This document shows, piece by piece, positions 2,057 through 48,556 of a stretch of DNA of 64,000 nucleotides. The position numbers and the translations under genes are program-made. Source of the stretch: Desulfosudaceae bacterium (GTDB taxonomy: Bacteria; Desulfobacterota; Desulfobacteria; Desulfobacterales; Desulfosudaceae); the NCBI GenBank assembly GCA_963674745.2, contig CAXXDV010000001.1:1696001-1760000 (forward strand). Reading direction: 5' to 3'. Each line of letters begins with the position of its first letter. Position 1 is the stretch's first letter. The notes under the pieces were generated by a model. It did no database searches and was not told where the DNA came from. It saw only the letters and a program-made list of their open reading frames with translations.

Positions 2057-3418
2057 ATGGCAGATGAAAAAGTTTCCAAAGGAGAAGAAACCCGGGCTCG
2101 CATCCTGGCCGCGGCCCGTGATGTTTTTACGACGAATTCGTTTCAGGCCGCCAGCATCAGGGCCATTGCCAATAAAGCCGGCGTGCGGCATCCGCTGGTG
2201 GTGCATTACTTCAAGTCCAAAACCGCGTTGTTCGAAGCCGTATCCTCACAAATCCAGCAGGACCTGCTGGAAAGCCATGCCGGTTTTTACCATCACCTGA
2301 CGGCGTTGGCGCCGGACCGGCGCCTGGATGTTTACCTGGAAGGTGTCATTCGTCAGGGGTTACGGGAGACCGATGCCTATCGTATGATTCTGCTCAACAC
2401 CATGGAAATGATTGTCCCCCATAAACCCCTGCCCGGTCTTGACCGGATGGCCGGGATTTATCAAAGAACCTGTTCGCTGGTCGGCGATTATGTCCTTCAA
2501 GGGGCTTCCGGGGACCACATCGACATGTTCATGACCGTTTTTACCATGACCGCGGCCCACTTTTTCGGCGGCCGGGCCTTTCATCAAAAGGTACTGGGGC
2601 TGGTTTCGGACGCGGCATATGAGCGCTGGGTCGGCGCCACCTTCAGGCAGATTTTCAGGCCGGTGCTGGAGGCATTGTCCGGGGACAGGGCATTGTCGAT
2701 GGATAAATACATGTCACGATGGCAGGAAACACATGGCTCCGGCAACAGGGGTTTTCCAGGCGGCCGATCGGGCATCAAATCTGAAGAAAACAAATCCCTG
2801 CTCCGGGGCGACATCACCCGGCAGCGCATTATCGAGGCCGCCTGCCAGGTTTTTGCCGTCTATCCCTACGACCGGGCCACCATCCGCATGATCGGCGAGG
2901 CCGCAGGATTTGATTTTTCCCGAATCCACCACATGTTTCCCACCAAGGCGGAATTATTTGAAGCCGTGATCCATGCGAATTTTAAAGCATTCATGAACGT
3001 TGTCTCCGACTGGCAGGAGGGTACGGCCGGAATGACGCCTGAGGAGGTGTTTGTTCACTACCTTCAAAAAGGGTTGTTTTATTGTTTTGAGAATCGCGAA
3101 ACCCTGGGCATGCTGGTGGTCAATATCGCTCATTATGAGAACTACCGGGACGTTTCGGGTTTTCCGTTTATGGCCCGGGTCCATTCCAATATGCTGGAGA
3201 TGGTGAAGCAGAGTGCGCCGGCCGGCGTGCCTTATGAAAAGGTGAGCAGCTGGCTGTACACGATTGTCATGATGGGCTATACCTTTGCCGGTGCGCCCGG
3301 ATATCCGGCCCGGATGATGGGCTTGGAACCAGATTCAGACGCCTACCGGCGACGGGTGTTTGAAACGCTGTTGTATGTTTTTATGCCGGCATTATTGAAA
3401 AACGTGGAACGGTTGTAA
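2057..3418 (+). CDS. Tandem double TetR/AcrR regulator
   Basis: Two TetR HTH motifs (ILAAARDVF...IRAIANKAGV...HYFKSK and IIEAACQVF...IRMIGEAAG...MFPTKAELF); start moved to MADEK. Confidence 0.85.
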   Translation: MADEKVSKGEETRARILAAARDVFTTNSFQAASIRAIANKAGVRHPLVVHYFKSKTALFEAVSSQIQQDLLESHAGFYHHLTALAPDRRLDVYLEGVIRQGLRETDAYRMILLNTMEMIVPHKPLPGLDRMAGIYQRTCSLVGDYVLQGASGDHIDMFMTVFTMTAAHFFGGRAFHQKVLGLVSDAAYERWVGATFRQIFRPVLEALSGDRALSMDKYMSRWQETHGSGNRGFPGGRSGIKSEENKSLLRGDITRQRIIEAACQVFAVYPYDRATIRMIGEAAGFDFSRIHHMFPTKAELFEAVIHANFKAFMNVVSDWQEGTAGMTPEEVFVHYLQKGLFYCFENRETLGMLVVNIAHYENYRDVSGFPFMARVHSNMLEMVKQSAPAGVPYEKVSSWLYTIVMMGYTFAGAPGYPARMMGLEPDSDAYRRRVFETLLYVFMPALLKNVERL

Positions 3419-38146: not shown

Positions 38147-38414
38147 AATCGAAACACACATCAGCTTTTTACATGAGATGGGCGTTTCGGGCGGCGCCTC
38201 CTCCCCTCCGCTCCCAGTTGACACCCCCGCCATAATCAATTATAGAAATCCTATCGGGGGATGAAAAACAATCCAATCAAAATAAGAGACAACCAAGGAG
38301 GGCGTGTTTTTGAACAGCCGGGGGGTTGAAACATTAACCATTTTTAAGTCAGTCTGTGGAAGCCCTGGTGCCCTCTGGCTGAAGACTTTCAGGAGTGCTT
38401 ATATAAAGAGAGTA

Positions 38415-39266
38415 ATGAACAAAACAATAATTACTACAACTGCTCTGCTTTTCTGTCTGAGTCTTTATTTAACAGCCTTTGCCGTATCTACACAAGTTAG
38501 GATTGATAGTGATCTTTCCAAAGGCAAACCTATTGTTATTCAGGTCTCGGTTGCTCTCGCGGATAACAAAAACCAATGGATAGTACCTGTGCCAGAAGAA
38601 ATCGGGAATGGCCAGGATCCTCGAACAAACCTTTATTGGGGTGCTCTATACGGTTTAAAAACCTATATGACAAAAAAGGCGGGCTGGAAAAAACTAGCAT
38701 CCGTTCAAGTCAATGACGAACGAATTTTGGAAAGATTGGTTCTGAAGAAGCATTTCATACGTAAAGGGAAATCAGTTCTTGTCTATCTAGTTGCTGACGC
38801 TTGGGATGGAAAATATATTGTCGATACGATCAAACAATTTATACGTTACAACGCAGGTTATGATGTGTTTAGTGTGAACGCGGATGGCAAAAAAATATAT
38901 GCTGGCGGGAAAGCACATCTAATAGTGTACATAGGACACAATGCACTAATGGATTATGGGGGGATAAAAAGCATTCTGTTTTCTGAGCAAGAATCAGCAA
39001 AAGACAATCCAGATAATGATTCCATAGTGCTGGCCTGTAAAAGCCAGCCATATTTTTCCTCTCGCTTAAAAGAAGTTAAGGCGCATCCCTTAGTATTGAC
39101 CACAGGCCTCATGGCTCCGGAAGCGTATTCACTTCATTCGGCAATTGAACAATGGATTGCCGGTGCCAGTGATGTTCAGGTCAGGAAAGCGGCTGCTGGC
39201 AGCTACAGCAAATATCAAAAGATTTCTGTTAAGGCGGCTGAACGATTGTTCGGCGGCAGGCAATAA
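38415..39266 (+). CDS. Hypothetical exported protein
   Basis: Signal peptide from MNKTII; NLYWG, YIGHN, LACKS, LMAPEAY. Confidence 0.6.
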   Translation: MNKTIITTTALLFCLSLYLTAFAVSTQVRIDSDLSKGKPIVIQVSVALADNKNQWIVPVPEEIGNGQDPRTNLYWGALYGLKTYMTKKAGWKKLASVQVNDERILERLVLKKHFIRKGKSVLVYLVADAWDGKYIVDTIKQFIRYNAGYDVFSVNADGKKIYAGGKAHLIVYIGHNALMDYGGIKSILFSEQESAKDNPDNDSIVLACKSQPYFSSRLKEVKAHPLVLTTGLMAPEAYSLHSAIEQWIAGASDVQVRKAAAGSYSKYQKISVKAAERLFGGRQ

Positions 39267-39384
39267 ACAACGCAGGCCGGTCAGGGCAGTCGGGCAAAAA
39301 CGAATTGAAGGCTTTAAATGATGAAAAGGGCAATTTAATAAAATATTCTGCTGTTAATTAAGTGGAAGGGCTGTCTGGTTTCGC

Positions 39385-40509
39385 ATGTACAAATTCGTTA
39401 ATATTTACATTGTTTTTTTTCTGGTCAGCGGCATCTTACCCCTGGTAGAGGTTATGCTGTATCAGCTTTTCTGGATTCAGCGGTTACCGGCAATTTCCTG
39501 GACTGTGGCCCTTCTCCCCCTGATTCTTTCCTTCCCGATCTACCTTATTCTTGGCTGTATGCGCAACTTTCCTAAACGGGTTGTGTTGCCTATGGCCTTG
39601 TTCATGGCCTGGAAGCATCTCTTTTATGCGCTGCCTGTTCCGTTTTTTCTGGGCTTTAGCAATACCAATATCCTTTTGACGCTGATGCACCCTTGCCTGG
39701 GTATCGTGGCGCTTGTCCTTTTGAGATACGCCGGAGAAAACGGTCATTGGCTATACAGACGGTCGGATTTTGAACACGTGAGGTTTCGTTGGAAACGATT
39801 ATGCGGTTTCGCCGCTGCAAATGTACTTCTCATTATCCCTTTGGTCGGAGTCTATCTTGCCGTTTCTCTCAGTGTGGGGCTTTCTTATCTGTCTCATGGG
39901 TTTTTGCATTTCGGGTTTGAAGGGATCTCGGTCGAGGCCCGCACGTATCTTTATCAAGGAAAGAATATCATTCTCCTCCCCACGGCTCATATTGCCAAAG
40001 CGGATTTTTACGATAAGCTGGTTGCGTCTTTGCCTGCAGGAAACACCGTGGTGATTCCAGAGGGCGTTACGGATAAGAACAAACTGCTTGAGCATGGATT
40101 GAACTATGAAAAGCTGGCGGGCAGTCTGGGGCTTGAGGCTCAGGATAATCAAAAGATAGTAGCTGATCGACACACGAAACAATGTGATGTTGATATCAGT
40201 GATTTTTCCTGGGAGATAATCGATTGTCTTCGTTCGTTTTCCAGCGCATCCCGATACTGGTCGTCCGGAAAACGGCTGAGGGCTTTGCAGCAGTTCTTTT
40301 CCACTCCGAATCCGGATCCAGAATTGTTTTTCCGGGAATTGTTGGAACTTCGAAATCTTCGTGTTACTGAATGCATTGCTGATTGTCTGCAAGCGTATGA
40401 TAATATAGTCATTCCCTGGGGTGCTGCACACATGCCCGGTATCGAAAGAGCTATTCTGGCATGGGATGGTATTATTGCAGAGCGCAGAACAATCCTGATT
40501 TGGGGGTGA
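39385..40509 (+). CDS. Hypothetical membrane protein with C-terminal soluble domain (TraB/GumN-like motifs)
   Basis: Several N-terminal TM helices; AHIA...FY, PEG, WGAAHMPGI. Confidence 0.55.
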   Translation: MYKFVNIYIVFFLVSGILPLVEVMLYQLFWIQRLPAISWTVALLPLILSFPIYLILGCMRNFPKRVVLPMALFMAWKHLFYALPVPFFLGFSNTNILLTLMHPCLGIVALVLLRYAGENGHWLYRRSDFEHVRFRWKRLCGFAAANVLLIIPLVGVYLAVSLSVGLSYLSHGFLHFGFEGISVEARTYLYQGKNIILLPTAHIAKADFYDKLVASLPAGNTVVIPEGVTDKNKLLEHGLNYEKLAGSLGLEAQDNQKIVADRHTKQCDVDISDFSWEIIDCLRSFSSASRYWSSGKRLRALQQFFSTPNPDPELFFRELLELRNLRVTECIADCLQAYDNIVIPWGAAHMPGIERAILAWDGIIAERRTILIWG

Positions 40510-40650
40510 TTCTCCCAAGGACAAGAATTGCCAAACTCACATGAGCCGCCCGGATCACGTCAACTACGAATGGTCATCCAAGACCAAAGTTTGGCTTGAA
40601 TGTCTGTTGGGCAGTCTCCTTGTTTATACCGATCCCCCCTTTTTCACCTC

Positions 40651-40686
40651 AAACTCAATATATAATAGCCATAATATATTGAGTTT
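40651..40686. repeat. 13-10-13 palindrome AAACTCAATATAT-N10-ATATATTGAGTTT
   Basis: Perfect 13-bp arms; degenerate copy at 46934-46969. Confidence 0.6.
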
Positions 40687-41048
40687 CGACCATTTTTTGC
40701 CGTAACTGGCTGTTTTTCGGTGGCAAATCGACAAAAAACTCAATACAAAACGATATGGTTATTTTATAGAGAATCCATAGGTCACAAAATTTGATTCTCT
40801 TCACACCTCTTTAAGCTCTGCCTAACAGGGCTATTAATAATAAAAAACCGGAATTAAAGAGTCGGTCTGTATAACATCCCAAATCGGCACAAAACACAGA
40901 CCGGTTGAACAATGCTCACTGTGTCAAGTGACGTTACATTTCTTATAATGGTTTGATAACAAAAGATATCGTTGATTTCTTCGAAATGATGTGATTTTAT
41001 TTAATAACAACTTTAAATCTTCACTAAATCAGAAAACGGGACAAAAGG

Positions 41049-41079
41049 CAGACCGACTACATAATTACTAATGTTAGGT
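41049..41079 (+). mobile_element. Putative attI-like first junction of cassette array
   Basis: G/TTAGGTG at 41073 is complementary to CACCTAAC ending cassette 1; no attC hairpin upstream. Confidence 0.5.
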
Positions 41080-41088
41080 GACCAATAA

Positions 41089-41394
41089 ATGTCACTATTT
41101 TCAAAAAAGATAATACAGCAAGATGATCCAGAATTAATCGATGCCCTGCAAAAATTTGTAGGTGCATTCGAAGTTGTGTTCCGTCATGATTGGGAATACA
41201 CCAAAATAATGATTGGGGATGAAGAAAAAGGATGTAACTTTATCGAGCCCGGGTTGGAAGACGAAACAGAGGACTGGGGTGCAAGAGGAGCCTTGTTGGA
41301 AAGTTATCGTCATCTTCTCAAATTAATGTCACAACGAGAAATAGAACCCATCTTACCATTTCCAATCAGCGACTTTCTAAAATTAAATAAATGA
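41089..41394 (+). CDS. Cassette 1 hypothetical protein
   Basis: ORF fills space between GTTAGGT and attC1. Confidence 0.7.
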   Translation: MSLFSKKIIQQDDPELIDALQKFVGAFEVVFRHDWEYTKIMIGDEEKGCNFIEPGLEDETEDWGARGALLESYRHLLKLMSQREIEPILPFPISDFLKLNK

Positions 41395-41397
41395 ATC

Positions 41398-41522
41398 ACC
41401 TAACAACGCCACTCACACAGACTCGCAGGGGCGGCCTGCCTTAGTCTTGGCATAGTGTGGTGTTGAAATAACATTTAGCGAAGTCCGCAAACCCTGCTCG
41501 CCGGTGGTGGCGGACGTTAGGT
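41398..41522 (+). mobile_element. attC1 (125 bp)
   Basis: ACCTAAC-AACGCCACTCAC...GCAGGG...CCCTGC...GTGGTGGCGGAC-GTTAGGT. Confidence 0.88.
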
Positions 41523-41528
41523 TCCAGA

Positions 41529-41849
41529 ATGGAAGAATCGGAAAAATTTTTTGCGAGAATCATCTTTGGATGGACATGGCGTAGGTTTCTCACCTTATGC
41601 TTTACCATTAGCGCTATAGCTATATTGGTTTTCGCTACGTTTTCCCTTTTACCATCCGAATCTCATAAAACGACAAGTTGGAAAGAGATTCTTTTGCTTT
41701 CGCTACTCTTGGGGCCATTGGTGACAACCACCATTTTTCTATATTTTCGTTTCATCAAAGGCCCAATTTTATTATCGAGGCTGCAATCGAAAGGCAAAAC
41801 TGATACTATCGAGTTTTGTAATGAATTAATCAATAAAAACGGAACCTAA
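41529..41849 (+). CDS. Cassette 2 hypothetical 2-TM protein
   Basis: Bounded by GTTAGGTTCC / GGAACCTAAC; stop codon lies in R''. Confidence 0.7.
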   Translation: MEESEKFFARIIFGWTWRRFLTLCFTISAIAILVFATFSLLPSESHKTTSWKEILLLSLLLGPLVTTTIFLYFRFIKGPILLSRLQSKGKTDTIEFCNELINKNGT

Positions 41850-41966
41850 CAACACCATGCACTTGACTCGCAGGGGCGGGCTGCTTTTCAATTATCGAGG
41901 TTCGGTGTTAACGTGGCTTTGCAAAAGTCACCTTTCCCTGCTCCCAAGTGACGGTGGACGTTATGT
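41844..41966 (+). mobile_element. attC2 (123 bp)
   Basis: ACCTAAC...CACTTG...GCAGGG...CCCTGC...CAAGTG...GTTATGT. Confidence 0.88.
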
Positions 41967-41981
41967 GTATGAAAGGTTCGA

Positions 41982-42335
41982 ATGGATATAATCTTTGAAG
42001 CGAAAAAAGTATCCTATAATGAAGCCTTAGGTGGAGATATTGTCCAGATTTCATTTGACCAAGATGATCATGATGACATCCTTGAAAATCCGTATAAATA
42101 CCTTCTTATCTCTATCAATTATGAATTCCCTCCATTTGAGCCATCATTTGAGTGGTATGACGGCACTGAGTATGATGGCGGTGATGAAATCAAAAATTAT
42201 TCTTTTCAGCCTGATCATTTAATGATGCAATTGGAAAACGATTTGGTTTTTGATATTTCTTTTAAAATCGAAAAACCTCTTTTCGAAAAAATAGATCAAT
42301 TTTTTAAAAAGGTATTTAAAAGATTAAACACATAA
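41982..42335 (+). CDS. Cassette 3 hypothetical acidic protein
   Basis: Bounded by GTTATGTGT / ACACATAAC; stop codon lies in R''. Confidence 0.7.
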   Translation: MDIIFEAKKVSYNEALGGDIVQISFDQDDHDDILENPYKYLLISINYEFPPFEPSFEWYDGTEYDGGDEIKNYSFQPDHLMMQLENDLVFDISFKIEKPLFEKIDQFFKKVFKRLNT

Positions 42336-42390
42336 CGAACAAGGATAGATCGTGCGAGGTAACGAGCCACGATCTTATCCGGGGTTGAAC
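42330..42390 (-). mobile_element. Short attC-like site (61 bp) of the inserted element, inverted relative to array
   Basis: Minus: GTTCAAC-CCCGG-ATAAGATC-GTG..CAC-GATCTAT-...-GTTATGT; extra base in the minus-strand 5' arm. Confidence 0.65.
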
Positions 42391-42584
42391 AAGCCCGCTG
42401 AACTTTCACTATAAGAAAATATTTAATTTGGGATAGAGGGCAAAAGGCGTGAACCTGGAAAGTGCTTTTTTTGCAGGGCGCAGGGATCCCTTAACCTGAA
42501 GGCAGGTTTTAAAAAGACAATTTTGTTCATGGGTGTGATTGCCTCCTGTTTTTTGTTGTGCCGGGTCATAACCGGGGCAGCGTT

Positions 42585-43640
42585 TTATCCCGGCTTCCAG
42601 GCCGCGTAACGGAACCCTTTGATGACCATCGGGATGTGGCAACGGGGGCACTTTACAGCAGGTCTCGGGCGTTGGATCTTTATTCCTAGCCGGACATGCA
42701 GGATCAATTGCACCAGTTGCAACGTCTTTTTGGCGTTGCCGTGGAGGAACCCGTAATCACGTACCCTGCGGAAGCCCTTGGGCAGGACATGCTGCAGAAT
42801 AAGCTGGAGAAAATTTTCTCCGTCAAGCGTGCGATAACGGGTATGGCCGGTGTTGCTTTCCGTGTATCGGAAGGTGACCCGGCCATTTTCATTGGCCACG
42901 ATGTTCTTTTCACTGATGACGCCCCGGTATAAGTACCGGGACAGGTACTTTATGGCCGGGAGCCCGTTACCGACCTTTTCACAATCCACGACCCATTTTG
43001 CAGGTGTATTTTTAGGCACATAAAGGCCGGCTTTTCTTAAAGCGGCCAGAAAACGGGCACGAAAGACCGTGGCCAGGTTAAACTCATTAAACAGATATTT
43101 TCCTTTTTTCTTTTTCCATTGTCGCCGGCGCTTATCAATCCCGCCGCCGGGCACCACCACATGGATATGAGGATGATAATCCAGACTTCGGGTGTTCGTA
43201 TGCAGAACCATGGTCAAACCGATTTCTGCGCCCATTTGCTTCGGGTTTAAGCCAAAATCCTTGAGTGTTTCGGACACACAGGAAAAGAAGATTGAATATA
43301 CATCCCGCTGATTGTTCCAGGCCAGCGGACGGAGTTCAAACGGCAGCGTAAACGTCGCCATAAAGTAAAGCACCGGAAGCAGTTTCTCCTGCTGCCGGTC
43401 GATCCACTGACTGGCCTCATGATTCTGGCATTTGGGGCAGCTCCGGTGCCCGCAGGACATTGGTTTCCATTGTCCATGTTGGCAGCCGGGGCACTGAACG
43501 TAAAATTCTCCGGAGGCAGGAGTGCGGCACCTGCGTATGGCACGCAAGGCTTTAAGATGCCCCGGCAAGGCTTTTTGGCCGTGCTTTTCCATAAACCTGT
43601 CAGCGTACTGATCAATAATTGATGCCAGTTCCATAATCAT
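42585..43640 (-). CDS. IS91-family rolling-circle (HUH/Y2) transposase with Zn-binding domain
   Basis: CRT...CPGC...[16 protein letters not shown] (HUH), YLSRY (Y2), [14 protein letters not shown]. Confidence 0.92.
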
Positions 43641-44541
43641 ACCTTTCTAAAATCAACATGGATTGTATTTATCAACTCATTTAAGACAGTCAGGCTGTCC
43701 TGCTCCGTTATATCGCTTAGATGCGTATAACGTGCTGTTGTGGAGGGACTGGCATGGCCAAGCAGGGCCTGGATGTGACGGAGGCTTAAGCCGCGTTCAA
43801 GCAGGTGGGTGGCAAAACTGTGACGCAGGGAGTGAATGGATACTTTTTTTTAATGCCGCATTCGGCGACGACCACTTTCATGGCTCTCTGACAGCCGCCT
43901 TTATCCATAAAGTTGGTGGCCGCCCGGATGGTTTCTAAAGAACCCTTGCAATTGGGGAATAACAAATTAGGATGACGATGCTTACGCCAAAGCTCCCGCA
44001 GGCCCTCCAACGTAAGATCCGGCAATGGCAGCATTCGGTCCTTATGACCTTTACCCCGGCGGATATGGACCTTTTTGCGTTCAGCATCAATGTCCCCGAT
44101 CTGAAGGGACAACGTCTCTTCCAGACGCAATCCCATGGAATAGGTTGTCAGCAGAAATACCCGGTAACGCAATTTCTTGGTTTTGCCGATGATCCGTTCA
44201 ACTTCGGAAACGGTAAGAATGTCCGGTATGGTTTTGACTTTCGGCGGTTTGACGATCTTGATCCATTCCCAGTCCTTTCCGAGCACATACCGCCAGAAGA
44301 ACTGCAAGCCGTTACGGTCAACCCTGACCGTGCTCCAGGAATGGCTATCCACCAGCTGAGAGAAATAACCTTCCAACTGTTCCGGACGCAAATGGTCGGG
44401 ACAACAATCAAAATGGTTACGAATGCGGCGGACTGAACGGGCATAGAGATCAATGGTCCTCGGACTCATCCCCTGAAGCTTGAGCAACTCCAGGTGCCGC
44501 TCATAAAGCCGGTTGAAACGTTTTACTTCCGAATCGTTCAT
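43637..44541 (-). CDS. Tyrosine recombinase (SAM-like N-domain), complete only via -1 frameshift at 43843-43851 (~301 aa)
   Basis: Frame 1 has GLRLEE and GKGHKDR; -1 frame continues [17 protein letters not shown]...[15 protein letters not shown]; stop overlaps transposase start (ATGA). Confidence 0.88.
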
Positions 44542-44628
44542 GGTATACTCCTTTTATTGGGGGTGCCCGTAATTGAGCACGTATTGGAGTATACCTTGTT
44601 TTTTATTAATCCGCCGCGTAGCGGCTTC

Positions 44629-44752
44629 GTTCAACAACGCCACTCACACTGACTCGCAGGGGCGGGCTGCTTTTTAATTATCGAAGTTCGGGGTTAACGT
44701 GGCTTTGCAAAAGTTACCATTCCCTGCTCGCCGGTGGTGGCGGACGTTATGT
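44629..44752 (+). mobile_element. attC4 (124 bp; probably the original attC of cassette 3)
   Basis: GTTCAAC-AACGCCACTCAC...GTGGTGGCGGAC-GTTATGT; central part close to attC2. Confidence 0.85.
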
Positions 44753-44776
44753 TTCGAAAAATATTAGGAGGTCCAC

Positions 44777-45061
44777 ATGGGATCAGATGATATTCAAGAA
44801 CAGCGTATTAATGGAGCAAAAGGAATTATTTCAAGTGCCAATATCTTAGCAATTGACGCTGGAATTGAGATTAATGACTCCATTTGGAATAAACGTCAGG
44901 GGATTGACAATCGAGAGTTACATACACTCGAACTTGTTAGAGATGGAAAAACAGTAAGTGGTGAATTCGACGTGGAGGAATTGGAAGACTATCCGGGTAA
45001 AGTTGGAACCGAAAAGACAGATTCCAAATTACGAACAATGATCCGTGAATTAAGCAAGTAA
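44777..45061 (+). CDS. Cassette hypothetical protein
   Basis: AGGAGG RBS; bounded by GTTATGTTT / AAACATAAC. Confidence 0.7.
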   Translation: MGSDDIQEQRINGAKGIISSANILAIDAGIEINDSIWNKRQGIDNRELHTLELVRDGKTVSGEFDVEELEDYPGKVGTEKTDSKLRTMIRELSK

Positions 45062-45125
45062 AACGATAGAACAACAATACACCGCAACTTTTTATGTTTG
45101 ATAAATAATTGAAATAAGAGAGAAA

Positions 45126-45249
45126 ACATAACAACGCCACTCACACGGACTCGCAGGGGCGAGCTGCTTTTGTTTTGGCGTAATTTGGAGTTGAACTCAC
45201 TTTAGCGAAGTCCGCAAACCCTGCTCGCCGGTGGTGGCAGACGTTCGGA
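45126..45249 (+). mobile_element. attC5 (124 bp)
   Basis: ACATAAC-AACGCCACTCAC...TTTAGCGAAGTCCGCAAACCCTGCTCGCCGGTGGTGGCAGAC-GTTCGGA; close to attC1. Confidence 0.88.
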
Positions 45250-45254
45250 CCAAT

Positions 45255-45818
45255 ATGAATCTTACTCCAGCAGACGATCTTAAAAATTTACTTAGCGAGC
45301 CGCAATATTGGATAAATAAAGCTGAAGCCCTTCGTGCGTCTGCTGGTGCAATATGGTATTGTCAACATTCCGTTCAGCATACTGATATCAATCAGGCGCT
45401 TGGCACCGATCCTCCAATTCAAATTAGCGGAGATATTTGGCAAGTTTATAGAATGTTATGTGGCATGTCTTTAGAGCTTGCCTATAAGGCCAGCCTTATC
45501 GCATTAGGCAAAGATATAAAAACAACACACAATCTAGTTTGGCTTGCTGAACAAGTTTGCTTTTCTTTAACCCAAAAAGAACACGGGTTACTCGCATTAC
45601 TATCAGAGTGTGTTATTTGGCAAGGCCGATATCCTGCTCCCAAAGATGATTTATCATTGGAATATTTTGTATATCTCCATTATGAAAATTTGTTTCGTAA
45701 GGTCACCACTGGTAATCTTACAGTCCTAAAGCCCTTAGAACCAGACCCTTTAGATTGGGAAGGTTATAATGAGCTATGGAAATCAGCAATTGCAGCATAT
45801 GAATGGCATAAATCCTAA
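45255..45818 (+). CDS. Cassette protein, HEPN-like
   Basis: SLELAYKA...THNLVWLAE...WQGRYP pattern; stop codon lies in R''. Confidence 0.5.
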   Translation: MNLTPADDLKNLLSEPQYWINKAEALRASAGAIWYCQHSVQHTDINQALGTDPPIQISGDIWQVYRMLCGMSLELAYKASLIALGKDIKTTHNLVWLAEQVCFSLTQKEHGLLALLSECVIWQGRYPAPKDDLSLEYFVYLHYENLFRKVTTGNLTVLKPLEPDPLDWEGYNELWKSAIAAYEWHKS

Positions 45819-46858: not shown

Positions 46859-47221
46859 TTATAGTTTTGTTCTGGGGTTAACTGGCGCTGGTCAAGCCAC
46901 GTATTCAGGTTAGAGGATTGAGAGGAAACAACAAAACTCAATATATTATTGTACATATCTATTGGGTTCGATCTTCAGAAAGGGAAAGTCAGCCTTGAAA
47001 ACTTTTCGTCAAACGATATCAGCGCAGTCTTGCACCTGCCGCTAAAATCCGCTTAAATCATCATAATAACTAGCAATATCAATTACTAAAGCCCTTTTGG
47101 CTGTTTTCACACACATTTCATATTAAGTTCATAATTATTCCAAAAACATCAATTATGCTTTGGTTAAAGATGAGACGAATAAAGGGTGAGGAACCGAAAA
47201 ATTAAAAAAGTGGAGGTAATT

Positions 47222-48556
47222 ATGAATGAGAACAACATGTTAAGTGATTCGCCGGGAGAAACAAACAATTCTGTTGGTTTTAAGATGGTAATAATTTTTG
47301 TTTTGATTCTTGCCCTGTTAATTCCCTCTGCAATGGTTAAATCACTGATACGGGAAAGGGAAAGCAGAAAGCATGATGTGATTAACGAAATCAGTTCAAA
47401 ATGGGGGGAGGCTCAGACCATAACAGGTCCGGTCATATCAATACCGTACAAACATCATGTAATTGATAAAAATGGAAAAAGAACTGAAACAACAAAGTAT
47501 ATGCACTTTCTGCCGGACAGATTAGACGTGAAAAGTGAGATATTACCGGAAATCCGCTACAGGGGAATCTACGAAACAGTATTGTATAATACAAAAACAT
47601 TATTAAACGGTAGTTTTTCATATCCTGAAGTTAGCGAAATGAATGTTCCAATCGAGGACATCGTGTGGACAGGCGCGTTTATATCTGTCGGGATATCAGA
47701 TATGCGTGGTATTAAAGATCAGATTACCGCGAGCTTTAACAAAGATGTCATCACAATGAATCCCGGAATTGAAACAAATGATGTCATCTGTTCAGGCATC
47801 AGCTCAAAGATCCGTCTTCATGATCAGACAAAAGAATATAAGTTCAGTATGGCAATAAACCTGAACGGAAGCCATATTTTAAACTTCGTTCCTGTCGGCG
47901 AAACAACATTTGTGTCTATGAATTCAACCTGGCCGGATCCAAGTTTTGGTGGCGCCTATGTCCCAAATACTTATGATGTCAGCAAGGATGGGTTTAAAGC
48001 CGAATGGAAGGTCCTGCATCTGAACAGGAACTATCCTCAGCACTGGACCGGAGACAGATATAATCTGAACGCTTCATCTTTCGGCGTTAAACTATTCATG
48101 CCCGTGGATACTTACCAGAAAACGGACCGGATCGCGAAATACGCTTTAATGTTCATTGTTTTCACCTTTTTGGCATTCTTTTTTTCTGAAGTTATGAACA
48201 AACTGAGGGTTCATCCGATACAATATCTGCTGGTCGGATGTGCTATCGTTATTTTTTATTCACTCCTTATATCCATATCAGAACACATTAACTTTAACCT
48301 CGCTTATCTGATTTCAAGCTTGGCAACAGTTATCCTTATTACAGGCTACGCAAAAAGTATCCTTAAAAGTAAACGTTTGTCCAATATGGTTGGCGCTGTC
48401 CTTACGTCCCTTTACATATATATGTATATTCTGCTCCAGCTTGAAGATTACGCTTTGTTAATGGGCAGCATGGGGCTTTTTGTTGTGCTCGGCATAATCA
48501 TGCACCTGACACGCAGGATCGACTGGTATTCAATTAAACTTGAAACCAGTAAATAA
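47222..48556 (+). CDS. creD: Inner membrane protein CreD
   Basis: LIRERESR, RYRGIY, WPDPSFGG, RIAKYALMFI, VHPIQYLLVG, LSISEH-like motif. Confidence 0.9.
   Translation: MNENNMLSDSPGETNNSVGFKMVIIFVLILALLIPSAMVKSLIRERESRKHDVINEISSKWGEAQTITGPVISIPYKHHVIDKNGKRTETTKYMHFLPDRLDVKSEILPEIRYRGIYETVLYNTKTLLNGSFSYPEVSEMNVPIEDIVWTGAFISVGISDMRGIKDQITASFNKDVITMNPGIETNDVICSGISSKIRLHDQTKEYKFSMAINLNGSHILNFVPVGETTFVSMNSTWPDPSFGGAYVPNTYDVSKDGFKAEWKVLHLNRNYPQHWTGDRYNLNASSFGVKLFMPVDTYQKTDRIAKYALMFIVFTFLAFFFSEVMNKLRVHPIQYLLVGCAIVIFYSLLISISEHINFNLAYLISSLATVILITGYAKSILKSKRLSNMVGAVLTSLYIYMYILLQLEDYALLMGSMGLFVVLGIIMHLTRRIDWYSIKLETSK

Follow-up and report, generated by a model that had tools for sequence, protein, structure and literature searches.

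A recombinase-bearing IS91-type element in a Desulfosudaceae genome, from a clade probably specialised on integron attC sites

Integron cassette arrays are a main store of adaptive and resistance genes, and one such array in a Desulfosudaceae genome raises the question of what kind of element can split an attC site without leaving a duplication. The stretch of DNA that was analysed (64,000 nucleotides (nt) of contig CAXXDV010000001.1, hereafter the window) holds an array of five attCs at 38308-45250, one of which is interrupted at 42337-44635 by an element of 2,299 bp. Both of its genes lie on the minus strand and encode a Xer/IntI-like tyrosine recombinase and a Y2 transposase. The preliminary description of this locus had taken it for a candidate self-mobilising integron cassette that carries its own attC and is integrated by its own recombinase. 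We favour another answer: with a probability of roughly 0.6, the element is an intact, recently active insertion sequence (IS) of the IS91 family, belonging to the recombinase-bearing (ISAzo26-like) subgroup and, within it, to a clade specialised on integron attC sites.

The interrupted attC is 120 nt long and ends in GTTATGT at 44752. When the element is removed in silico, ACATAAC directly joins AACGCC..., an arrangement shared with the attC at 45127, which is uninterrupted, and with dozens of intact paralogues; the earlier statement that a clean deletion restores the site was thus correct, the boundaries being 42337-44635. No target bases are duplicated or lost at the junction, where the intact paralogous attCs pass from YAAC into an inner part reading AACGCC..., AATCAAGC... 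or CATTCAGCG.... The genome (5.55 Mb in 3 contigs) has about 232 attC-like places in at least 10 arrays and contains four full copies of the element, 100, 99, 97 and 96% identical to the query. All four entered at the same base and in the same orientation, in attCs of three different sequence types, and each is preceded by (C/T)(A/T)TAAC and followed by the inner part of the attC. Across them, the position of the junction is ambiguous by a single base, C. Inverted insertion into an attC R'' box, proposed from the window copy, therefore applies to 4/4 copies of this genome, and it extends to relatives at R'' boxes, the attC of aadA1 included. The high identity of the copies, together with their intact open reading frames (ORFs), points to recent activity.

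Two fragments were also noted in this genome. At C3:1912983-1913005, 23 nt identical to the start of the ori end stand right after CATAAC, between an ORF and an antitoxin-like gene; from its sequence, this looks like the deletion remnant of a fifth copy. At C3:1001330-1001345 there is a lone exact 16-nt left terminus, GTTGAACGAAGCCGCT, too long for chance in 5.5 Mb, with no recognisable attC around it.

Relatives were collected in two ways. A protein search with the recombinase ORF of 251 amino acids (aa) gave 4,016 proteins at E ≤ 0.001 among 4,277 candidates, and a scan of species-representative genomes gave 303 encoding stretches, of which the best 80 were analysed. With the four own copies this makes 84 loci, and both ends were located in 57 of them (4 own and 53 foreign), with element lengths of 2186-2421 bp. 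Most of the best 80 foreign loci come from metagenome-assembled genomes of Desulfobacterota and Gammaproteobacteria. In the 57 loci plus the E. coli copy described below, the 3' flank begins with G (58/58), T (55/57) and T (57/57), followed by A, C or G, and the 5' flank has T at -2 in 50/53 and at -1 in 40/53. The coding-strand target, TT/GTTRKRY with the slash at the insertion point, is the complement of the integron R'' box plus two bases; seen on the cassette strand, the YAAC of the R'' box immediately precedes the element, whose orientation is opposite to that of the cassette genes. A converging ORF with its stop no more than 60 nt from the 3' junction was found in 33 of the 43 loci having enough 3' flank, which places the element at the gene-proximal (R'') end of the attC and inverted to the cassette genes. 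Flanks without GTT were seen at two loci, L025 and L087.

The attC nature of the target was assessed with a crude shape test, which 19 of 46 usable loci passed, as compared with 57 of 649 control GTT positions in the same loci. It replaced a first test based on strict R-box complementarity, which was too strict (9/46 passing). At least six further loci (L010, L020, L022, L035, L049 and L083) show a long imperfect hairpin by eye. Two other measures were uninformative: similarity of the 5' flank to other attCs of the same locus gave a further copy in only 6 of 36 loci, the foreign arrays being too divergent, and the count of long-range pairs in the folded 150-nt 5' flank was noisy, the bona fide aadA1 attC itself scoring low.

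More distant relatives are found on plasmids. Recombinase homologues at 53-56% identity occur on six plasmids, the same six records that are the best matches of the transposase, and there the recombinase gene is contiguous, encodes 296 aa and has no A-run. On the E. coli IncC plasmid NZ_LT985243.1, the only record in which this copy was found, the related element lies between aadA1 and qacEdelta1 in a class 1 integron, inverted to the cassettes. It splits the canonical aadA1 attC exactly after GTCTAAC, ahead of AATTCGTTCAAGCC, at the same base and again with no duplication. In Photobacterium damselae pPHDD1 (L098), a group II intron (ltrA) directly adjoins the left end of the related element, and two different attC invaders may here occupy one site.

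Individual loci among the relatives show further arrangements. In L088, a lone, diverged ori module of 62 nt (3347-3409; subterminal repeat, hairpin and TTGTTC, without genes) stands directly ahead of a full element, which indicates that the full copy landed at a GTT behind the hairpin of another element. L057 (1592-2486) holds an 894-bp deletion derivative that has kept both ends; its deletion starts at the recombinase gene's A-run and reaches an A-rich stretch close to the right end, and this derivative may be non-autonomous. In the 5' flank of L035, 18 nt across the attC-element junction are duplicated, with GTTC replacing GTTG, which could be due to read-through to a surrogate GAAC or to slippage duplication. 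Finally, the left end of L077 is preceded by five tandem GTTGGGTTT units.

The two ends of the element differ. On the plus strand, the right end consists of a tail GAACAA (42337-42342), a hairpin (42343-42380), GGG, and a subterminal repeat GTTGAAC-AAGCCCGC (42384-42398). The hairpin has a 12-bp stem (arms 42343-42354 and 42368-42380) with one bulged base, A on the 5' arm of the minus strand and T on the 3' arm of the plus strand, and is adjoined by GTTGAAC at 42384-42390. The left terminus reads GTTGAAC on the minus strand (44635-44629), followed by a small palindrome, GCCGC-3 nt-GCGGC, at 44613-44625. Relatives share these features, so that the conserved GTTGRAC and GTYCAAC ends anticipated for homologues were indeed found: in the 57 loci the left-terminus consensus is GTTG(A/G)ACGAAGCCGC with a small palindrome, and that of the right end GGGCT(T/C)GT(T/C)CAAC, 2-4 nt, a bulged 12-bp hairpin and TT(A/G)TTC. 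Several contigs of relatives start exactly at GTTG(A/G)AC, which fits a repeat boundary in the assembly.

The right-end hairpin is under structural selection. Among 47 distinct right ends, 98.4% of the cells of the 12-bp stem are paired and the bulged base never varies; compensatory changes occur in 3 of the 12 stem pairs (in 13, 6 and 1 sequences), and none of 500 shuffles reached the observed score. The 61-bp hairpin with its extra base on the minus-strand 5' arm, described from the window copy, was confirmed both as a fold and by these compensatory changes. It travels with the element: a sister genome from the same genus has the orthologous cassette at 84% identity, and the attC behind that cassette is intact and free of the hairpin, which is thus the element's and not the cassette's. 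That attC in the sister genome (G002, L100:1300-1560, orthologous to window 41982-42336) is of a different sequence type from the window's, and the window attC may be chimeric, e.g., through recombination between element copies.

Joining the ends in silico pairs the left terminus GTTGAACGAAGCC with the subterminal right repeat GGCTTGTTCAAC. The left 7-mer co-varies with the subterminal right 7-mer: GTTGAAC goes with GTTCAAC in 32 cases and GTTGGAC with GTCCAAC or GTCCGAC in 17, and the mismatched combinations are A with C (7) and never G with T (0). On the cassette-side strand the 7-mers pair in 49 of 52 distinct elements, as against 44 of 52 on the coding strand, and the joined ends fold into an outer stem, an unpaired 6/3-nt spacer, a bulged inner stem and a loop, i.e., the two-stem outline of an attC. 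The pairing of the ends in a circular form, as previously suggested, holds in silico. The attC-like shape of the element's own end appears only on joining both ends in silico (49/52), and as far as the sequences tell, 'integron cassette' is a resemblance. No right-to-left end joins or empty-site bridges were detected in the public-run data, which consisted of assembled contigs only and are uninformative on circles. In these contigs there were many differing continuations past 42397 and ahead of 44633, and word depth was several-fold higher at the ends than in the interior; additional elements or derivatives sharing just the end modules may be present in the samples.

The pairing of a recombinase with an IS91-type transposase, also part of the preliminary description, was supported by Pfam matches and by the NF033538 model (transpos_IS91), which tnpA matches at 387 bits (cut-off 125). 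The Pfam matches of tnpA are PF14319 (Zn_Tnp_IS91) and PF04986 (Y2_Tnp), and HPHIH (HUH-type) and YLSRY motifs are seen by eye in its translation. The ends were compared with IS91 by means of the published family rules, as set out in the accessible part of PMC13181058: the oriIS and terIS ends are distinct, with subterminal palindromes at both and no duplication; the target tetranucleotide adjoins oriIS (CTTG or GTTC), and the tetranucleotide cleaved at terIS is CTCG in IS91 and GTTC in others; single- and double-stranded circles are formed with ori and ter abutted; and canonical members insert by the transposase alone. Every one of these rules that can be read from a sequence holds for the element, which combines a Y2 HUH transposase and Zn domain with the lack of duplication, distinct ends and the tetranucleotide. 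Indeed, it begins with GTTG, the ori flank is GTT(A/C/G) in 55/57 loci, and the strand that should be displaced under these rules has YAAC as its flank and CAAC as the last bases of the element.

For the recombinase, the 251-aa ORF matches PF13495 and PF00589 and contains neither the HxxR nor the Tyr residues. Its scores reach no curated family cut-off, the best models being those of the integron integrase, XerA, XerD and XerC, and its best relatives of solved structure are an XerC-like protein, XerA and IntI4. With the TIGR02249 model (cut-off 265), the 251-aa part scores 89.7 bits and a read-through homologue 137 bits, both well short of IntI, and positions 180-249 of the IntI model, the IntI-specific insertion region, are unmatched. 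Judged by these matches, the recombinase is Xer/IntI-like and not IntI.

Past an A8G run, the -1 frame encodes the missing catalytic part, which contains an HxLRH box as well as the catalytic Tyr. Of the 84 loci, 79 were long enough for a frameshift survey. A run of 8 (59 loci) or 9 (19 loci) adenines is present in 78, one locus lacking it at the expected place, and for the catalytic part the open frame is -1 in 70 loci and another one in 3, this part being broken in 5. GIKKK is invariant in the homologue alignment A1, and the lysine codons inside the run show no drift to AAG. Among the 120 matches listed, 100 are exactly 251 aa long and 13 more 247-253 aa, and P0110 is the sole homologue that runs on into the catalytic part. 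With this arrangement, a full-length recombinase requires a -1 shift at the conserved A8-9 run, the abundant truncated 251-aa product probably being a DNA-binding regulator. A conserved RNA structure 3' of the slippery run was not supported (consensus -3.55 kcal/mol, zero compensatory pairs), and ribosomal and transcriptional slippage are for this reason not told apart. The shifted-frame stop overlaps or abuts the tnpA start: in the window the TGA (43639-43637) overlaps the tnpA ATG (43640-43638) as ATGA, and overlap of a TGA stop with ATG, GTG or TTG is found in 44 of 73 loci. In IS91, orf121 also lies upstream of tnpA with its stop overlapping the tnpA start, and the protein that it encodes inhibits transposition and has control over precise cleavage at terIS (PMC13181058, accessible part).

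How, then, would the element enter an attC? We consider the transposase the likely inserting enzyme. As in IS91, IS801 and IS1294, it would nick the cassette-side strand behind the YAAC that flanks the ori end; this strand would be displaced up to the CAAC at the ter end and then joined after the YAAC of the target. Target choice could follow from geometry, an attC offering a YAAC, a few bases and a hairpin, which is the arrangement of the element's own ori junction. Since the ends obey the IS91-family rules, the transposase alone could do the whole job, and microhomology of the GTT/AAC type, expected of any IS91 member, does not by itself point to the recombinase. The retention of the catalytic residues nevertheless implies that the recombinase is needed, candidate steps being the selection of targets or ends, the resolution of tandem or circular products, or integration itself. 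The Tn916 integrase reportedly directs cleavage by an HUH-type nuclease, to go by the title of one study, and by analogy a recombinase that serves as a specificity factor would then have a precedent. The most economical reading of the element's 'own attC' is that it consists of oriIS and the terminal repeats.

Several observations weigh against a specialised IS inserted by its transposase. A four-base target cannot alone explain the specificity for attC, and we know of no IS91-family transposase that reads a hairpin in its target. The conserved catalytic residues, as deduced from the translations, argue for strand exchange by the recombinase, of which a transposase-only scheme has no need. The junctions fit cleavage between AA and C, where an integron-type recombinase would cut, equally well: in the junction comparison, all but one locus are compatible both with this and with cleavage after AAC. 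The left end of L023 lacks the terminal G, for which a cut between G and TT is the easier explanation. The crude attC-shape test is failed by about half of the foreign loci, and at least one insertion is not in an attC, L015 lying inside a methylase-like ORF at TATA/GTTC, about 70 nt from an attC. The expectation that homologues fall at attC R boxes held for the relatives at R'' boxes and failed for L015, at GTTC in a gene, and for the ISAzo26 and pTi copies, which lie outside integrons.

The alternative that survives best, although we think it less likely, gives the two enzymes other roles. The HUH transposase would only make a single-stranded circle of the cassette-side strand, and the element's own recombinase would integrate it; the ori-ter junction would act as an R box (GTYCAAC/GTTGRAC) with an unpaired spacer and a second, bulged stem, and the recombinase would carry out a single-strand exchange with the 5' box of a host attC, in the way that IntI handles cassettes. 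The junction 7-mers do pair in 49/52 elements on the very strand predicted by the IS91 rules to be displaced, fit the core consensus RYYYAAC/GTTRRRY and co-vary (32 A/T, 17 G/C, 7 A/C and 0 G/T). The bulged base is on the 3' arm of the predicted displaced strand, and attC bottom strands carry their extrahelical base on the 3' arm as well. Excision would restore perfect R boxes both in the circle and in the host attC, and L023 is compatible with cleavage between G and TT. Moreover, the recombinase has conserved catalytic residues, and its nearest database neighbours are Xer and IntI, to our knowledge the only recombinases acting on folded single strands (integron cassettes and CTX phage). However, covariation of inverted repeats is equally expected of protein-bound double-stranded repeats, and the mismatch is A/C and never the G/T wobble, contrary to the prediction from single-strand pairing. 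Similar ends are also found in recombinase-bearing relatives that live outside integrons, and the recombinase stays under every family cut-off, IntI-model positions 180-249 being unmatched. Finally, canonical IS91 members share the same end logic and insert by the transposase alone (PMC13181058, accessible part). The extended form of this scheme, in which nature would have combined two systems that act on single-stranded DNA, is no less tentative: the HUH transposase would peel off the circle, its joined ends would fold into an attC mimic, and an Xer/IntI-like recombinase, rationed by frameshifting, would paste this mimic into the non-canonical (cassette-side) attC strand. If true, such an integron-independent, self-integrating cassette could invade, split and reshuffle arrays, clinical class 1 integrons included.

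It is very improbable that the host IntI moves the unit as an ordinary cassette, both encoded enzymes being irrelevant to its spread in arrays. In the inserted state, the host R'' and the ori module do make up a small attC-like site, and the ter end gives the old attC a new RYYYAAC box, so that excision by IntI would be possible in principle; the genome also has three intI genes above the TIGR02249 family cut-off. Against this, both genes and ends are kept down to 64% recombinase identity (80 foreign loci, both ends located in 53), insertion is on the R'' side and not at the G/TT crossover of R' used by IntI, and L015 is inserted inside a gene. No integron integrase was found near the window array (38308-45250) or near the array of one other copy.

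Still less credible is a plain IS91-type IS with a frameshifted, decaying recombinase gene, since, although the zero-frame ORF ends at 251 aa without the catalytic His/Arg and Tyr and no conserved stimulatory RNA structure follows the run, the same break recurs at the same A8-9 run in 78/79 loci down to 64% identity, 70 loci retain an open -1 frame with its HxLRH and Tyr motifs, the lysine codons never drift to AAG inside the run, and the 53-56% relatives have one contiguous 296-aa gene.

The features of the locus are listed in Table 1. Chromosomal cassette ORFs usually belong to no Pfam family, and none was found in the seven flanking cassette ORFs (window 38304-45818). CreD (47186-48556) marks the end of the array region.

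Table 1. Features of the element and of the attC that it interrupts, in window coordinates.
Feature	Position	Strand	Remark
R'' box of the host attC, ACATAAC	42330..42336	+	Holds the TAA stop of the cassette ORF 41982-42335; element after the last C
Right (oriIS-type) end	42337..42399	-	Conserved ends, pairing, fold
tnpA, IS91-family Y2 HUH transposase, 351 aa, N-terminal Zn-binding domain	42585..43640	-	Pfam/NCBI models
C-terminal catalytic part of the recombinase, -1 frame, Tyr in TTARYTH	43637..43851	-	
Slippery run, A8 then G (A AAA AAG in the zero frame), site of the predicted conserved -1 shift	43843..43851	-	
Zero-frame recombinase ORF, 251 aa: SAM-like N-terminal domain and first part of the catalytic domain	43786..44541	-	
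Left (terIS-type) end, including the leader up to the recombinase ATG	44560..44635	-	
Rest of the interrupted host attC, AACGCC... to R' GTTATGT (44746-44752)	44636..44752	+	

IS1111-attC elements (IS110 family) and group IIC-attC introns home to attC in a fixed orientation, and we know of no other kind of mobile element that homes to these sites. In full-text literature searches, which did not cover ISfinder or TnPedia, no published account of an IS91-type insertion into an attC was found. Both known kinds are named as attC invaders in the accessible part of PMC9229058, and one published source, in the part available, detected no IS interrupting an attC. The recombinase-bearing IS91 subgroup is already known; its attC target rule apparently is not. 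A third kind of attC-homing element, common yet overlooked, would act as a parasite of arrays and remodel them: its insertion splits R'' from the rest of the attC, leaves two hybrid sites that resemble attCs and scatters repeats of 2.3 kb through the arrays. The element is abundant in sediment Desulfobacterota and Gammaproteobacteria, with at least one case in an E. coli IncC resistance integron. It makes two questions testable, namely the role of the recombinase in the IS91 subgroup and the reading of a hairpin target by an HUH transposase or a non-IntI recombinase, and the conserved -1 shift would add a case of recoding that controls a site-specific recombinase.

With the IS91 family, the element shares the Y2 HUH transposase with a Zn-binding N-terminus, the differing palindromic ends and the absence of target duplication. 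The tetranucleotides flanking ori and at ter are alike within each element, GTTN/GTTG here and GTTC/GTTC in IS801 and IS1294, as far as the accessible part of the source goes, and the recombinase gene resembles orf121 of IS91 in its upstream position and its stop/start coupling to tnpA (PMC13181058, accessible part). Unlike in IS91, IS801, IS1294 and IS1294b, the accessory gene here encodes a tyrosine recombinase with its catalytic residues kept, and its expression appears to depend on a -1 shift; the target is the R'' boundary of attC hairpins in one orientation, and not any GTTC or CTTG. Closest in organisation are the ISAzo26-like elements, in which a tyrosine recombinase gene likewise lies directly upstream of tnpA, co-oriented and inside the ends. 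These include an 'IS91-like element ISAzo26 family transposase' (PGAP) behind a tyrosine recombinase on Aromatoleum aromaticum EbN1 plasmid 2 and the same recombinase-transposase pair on Rhizobium pTi plasmids. Their ends are similar, the left terminus being GTTGGAC or GATTGAAC with a small palindrome (ACCGC/GCGGT in ISAzo26) and the right end combining a subterminal repeat with a hairpin. The ISAzo26 and pTi copies differ in being only about 30-33% identical in both proteins, in lying outside cassette arrays and in having a contiguous recombinase gene.

The known attC invaders use a DEDD transposase with a guide RNA (IS1111-attC) or a ribozyme with a reverse transcriptase (group IIC-attC introns), whereas an HUH nuclease and a tyrosine recombinase are found here; a DEDD-type IS110 transposase domain is absent from the element, its two ORFs being those of the tyrosine recombinase and the Y2 transposase. 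With integron cassettes and IntI there is a likeness in the joined ends, which give, in about 60 nt, a 7-bp consensus R box, a spacer left unpaired, and a second stem that carries an extrahelical base and a variable loop, as well as in the GTT/AAC at the exchange point and in the Xer/IntI type of the recombinase. The element nonetheless departs from cassettes in that its recombinase is not IntI, that it enters at the R'' of the cassette strand and not at the G/TT of R', and that it carries an HUH transposase.

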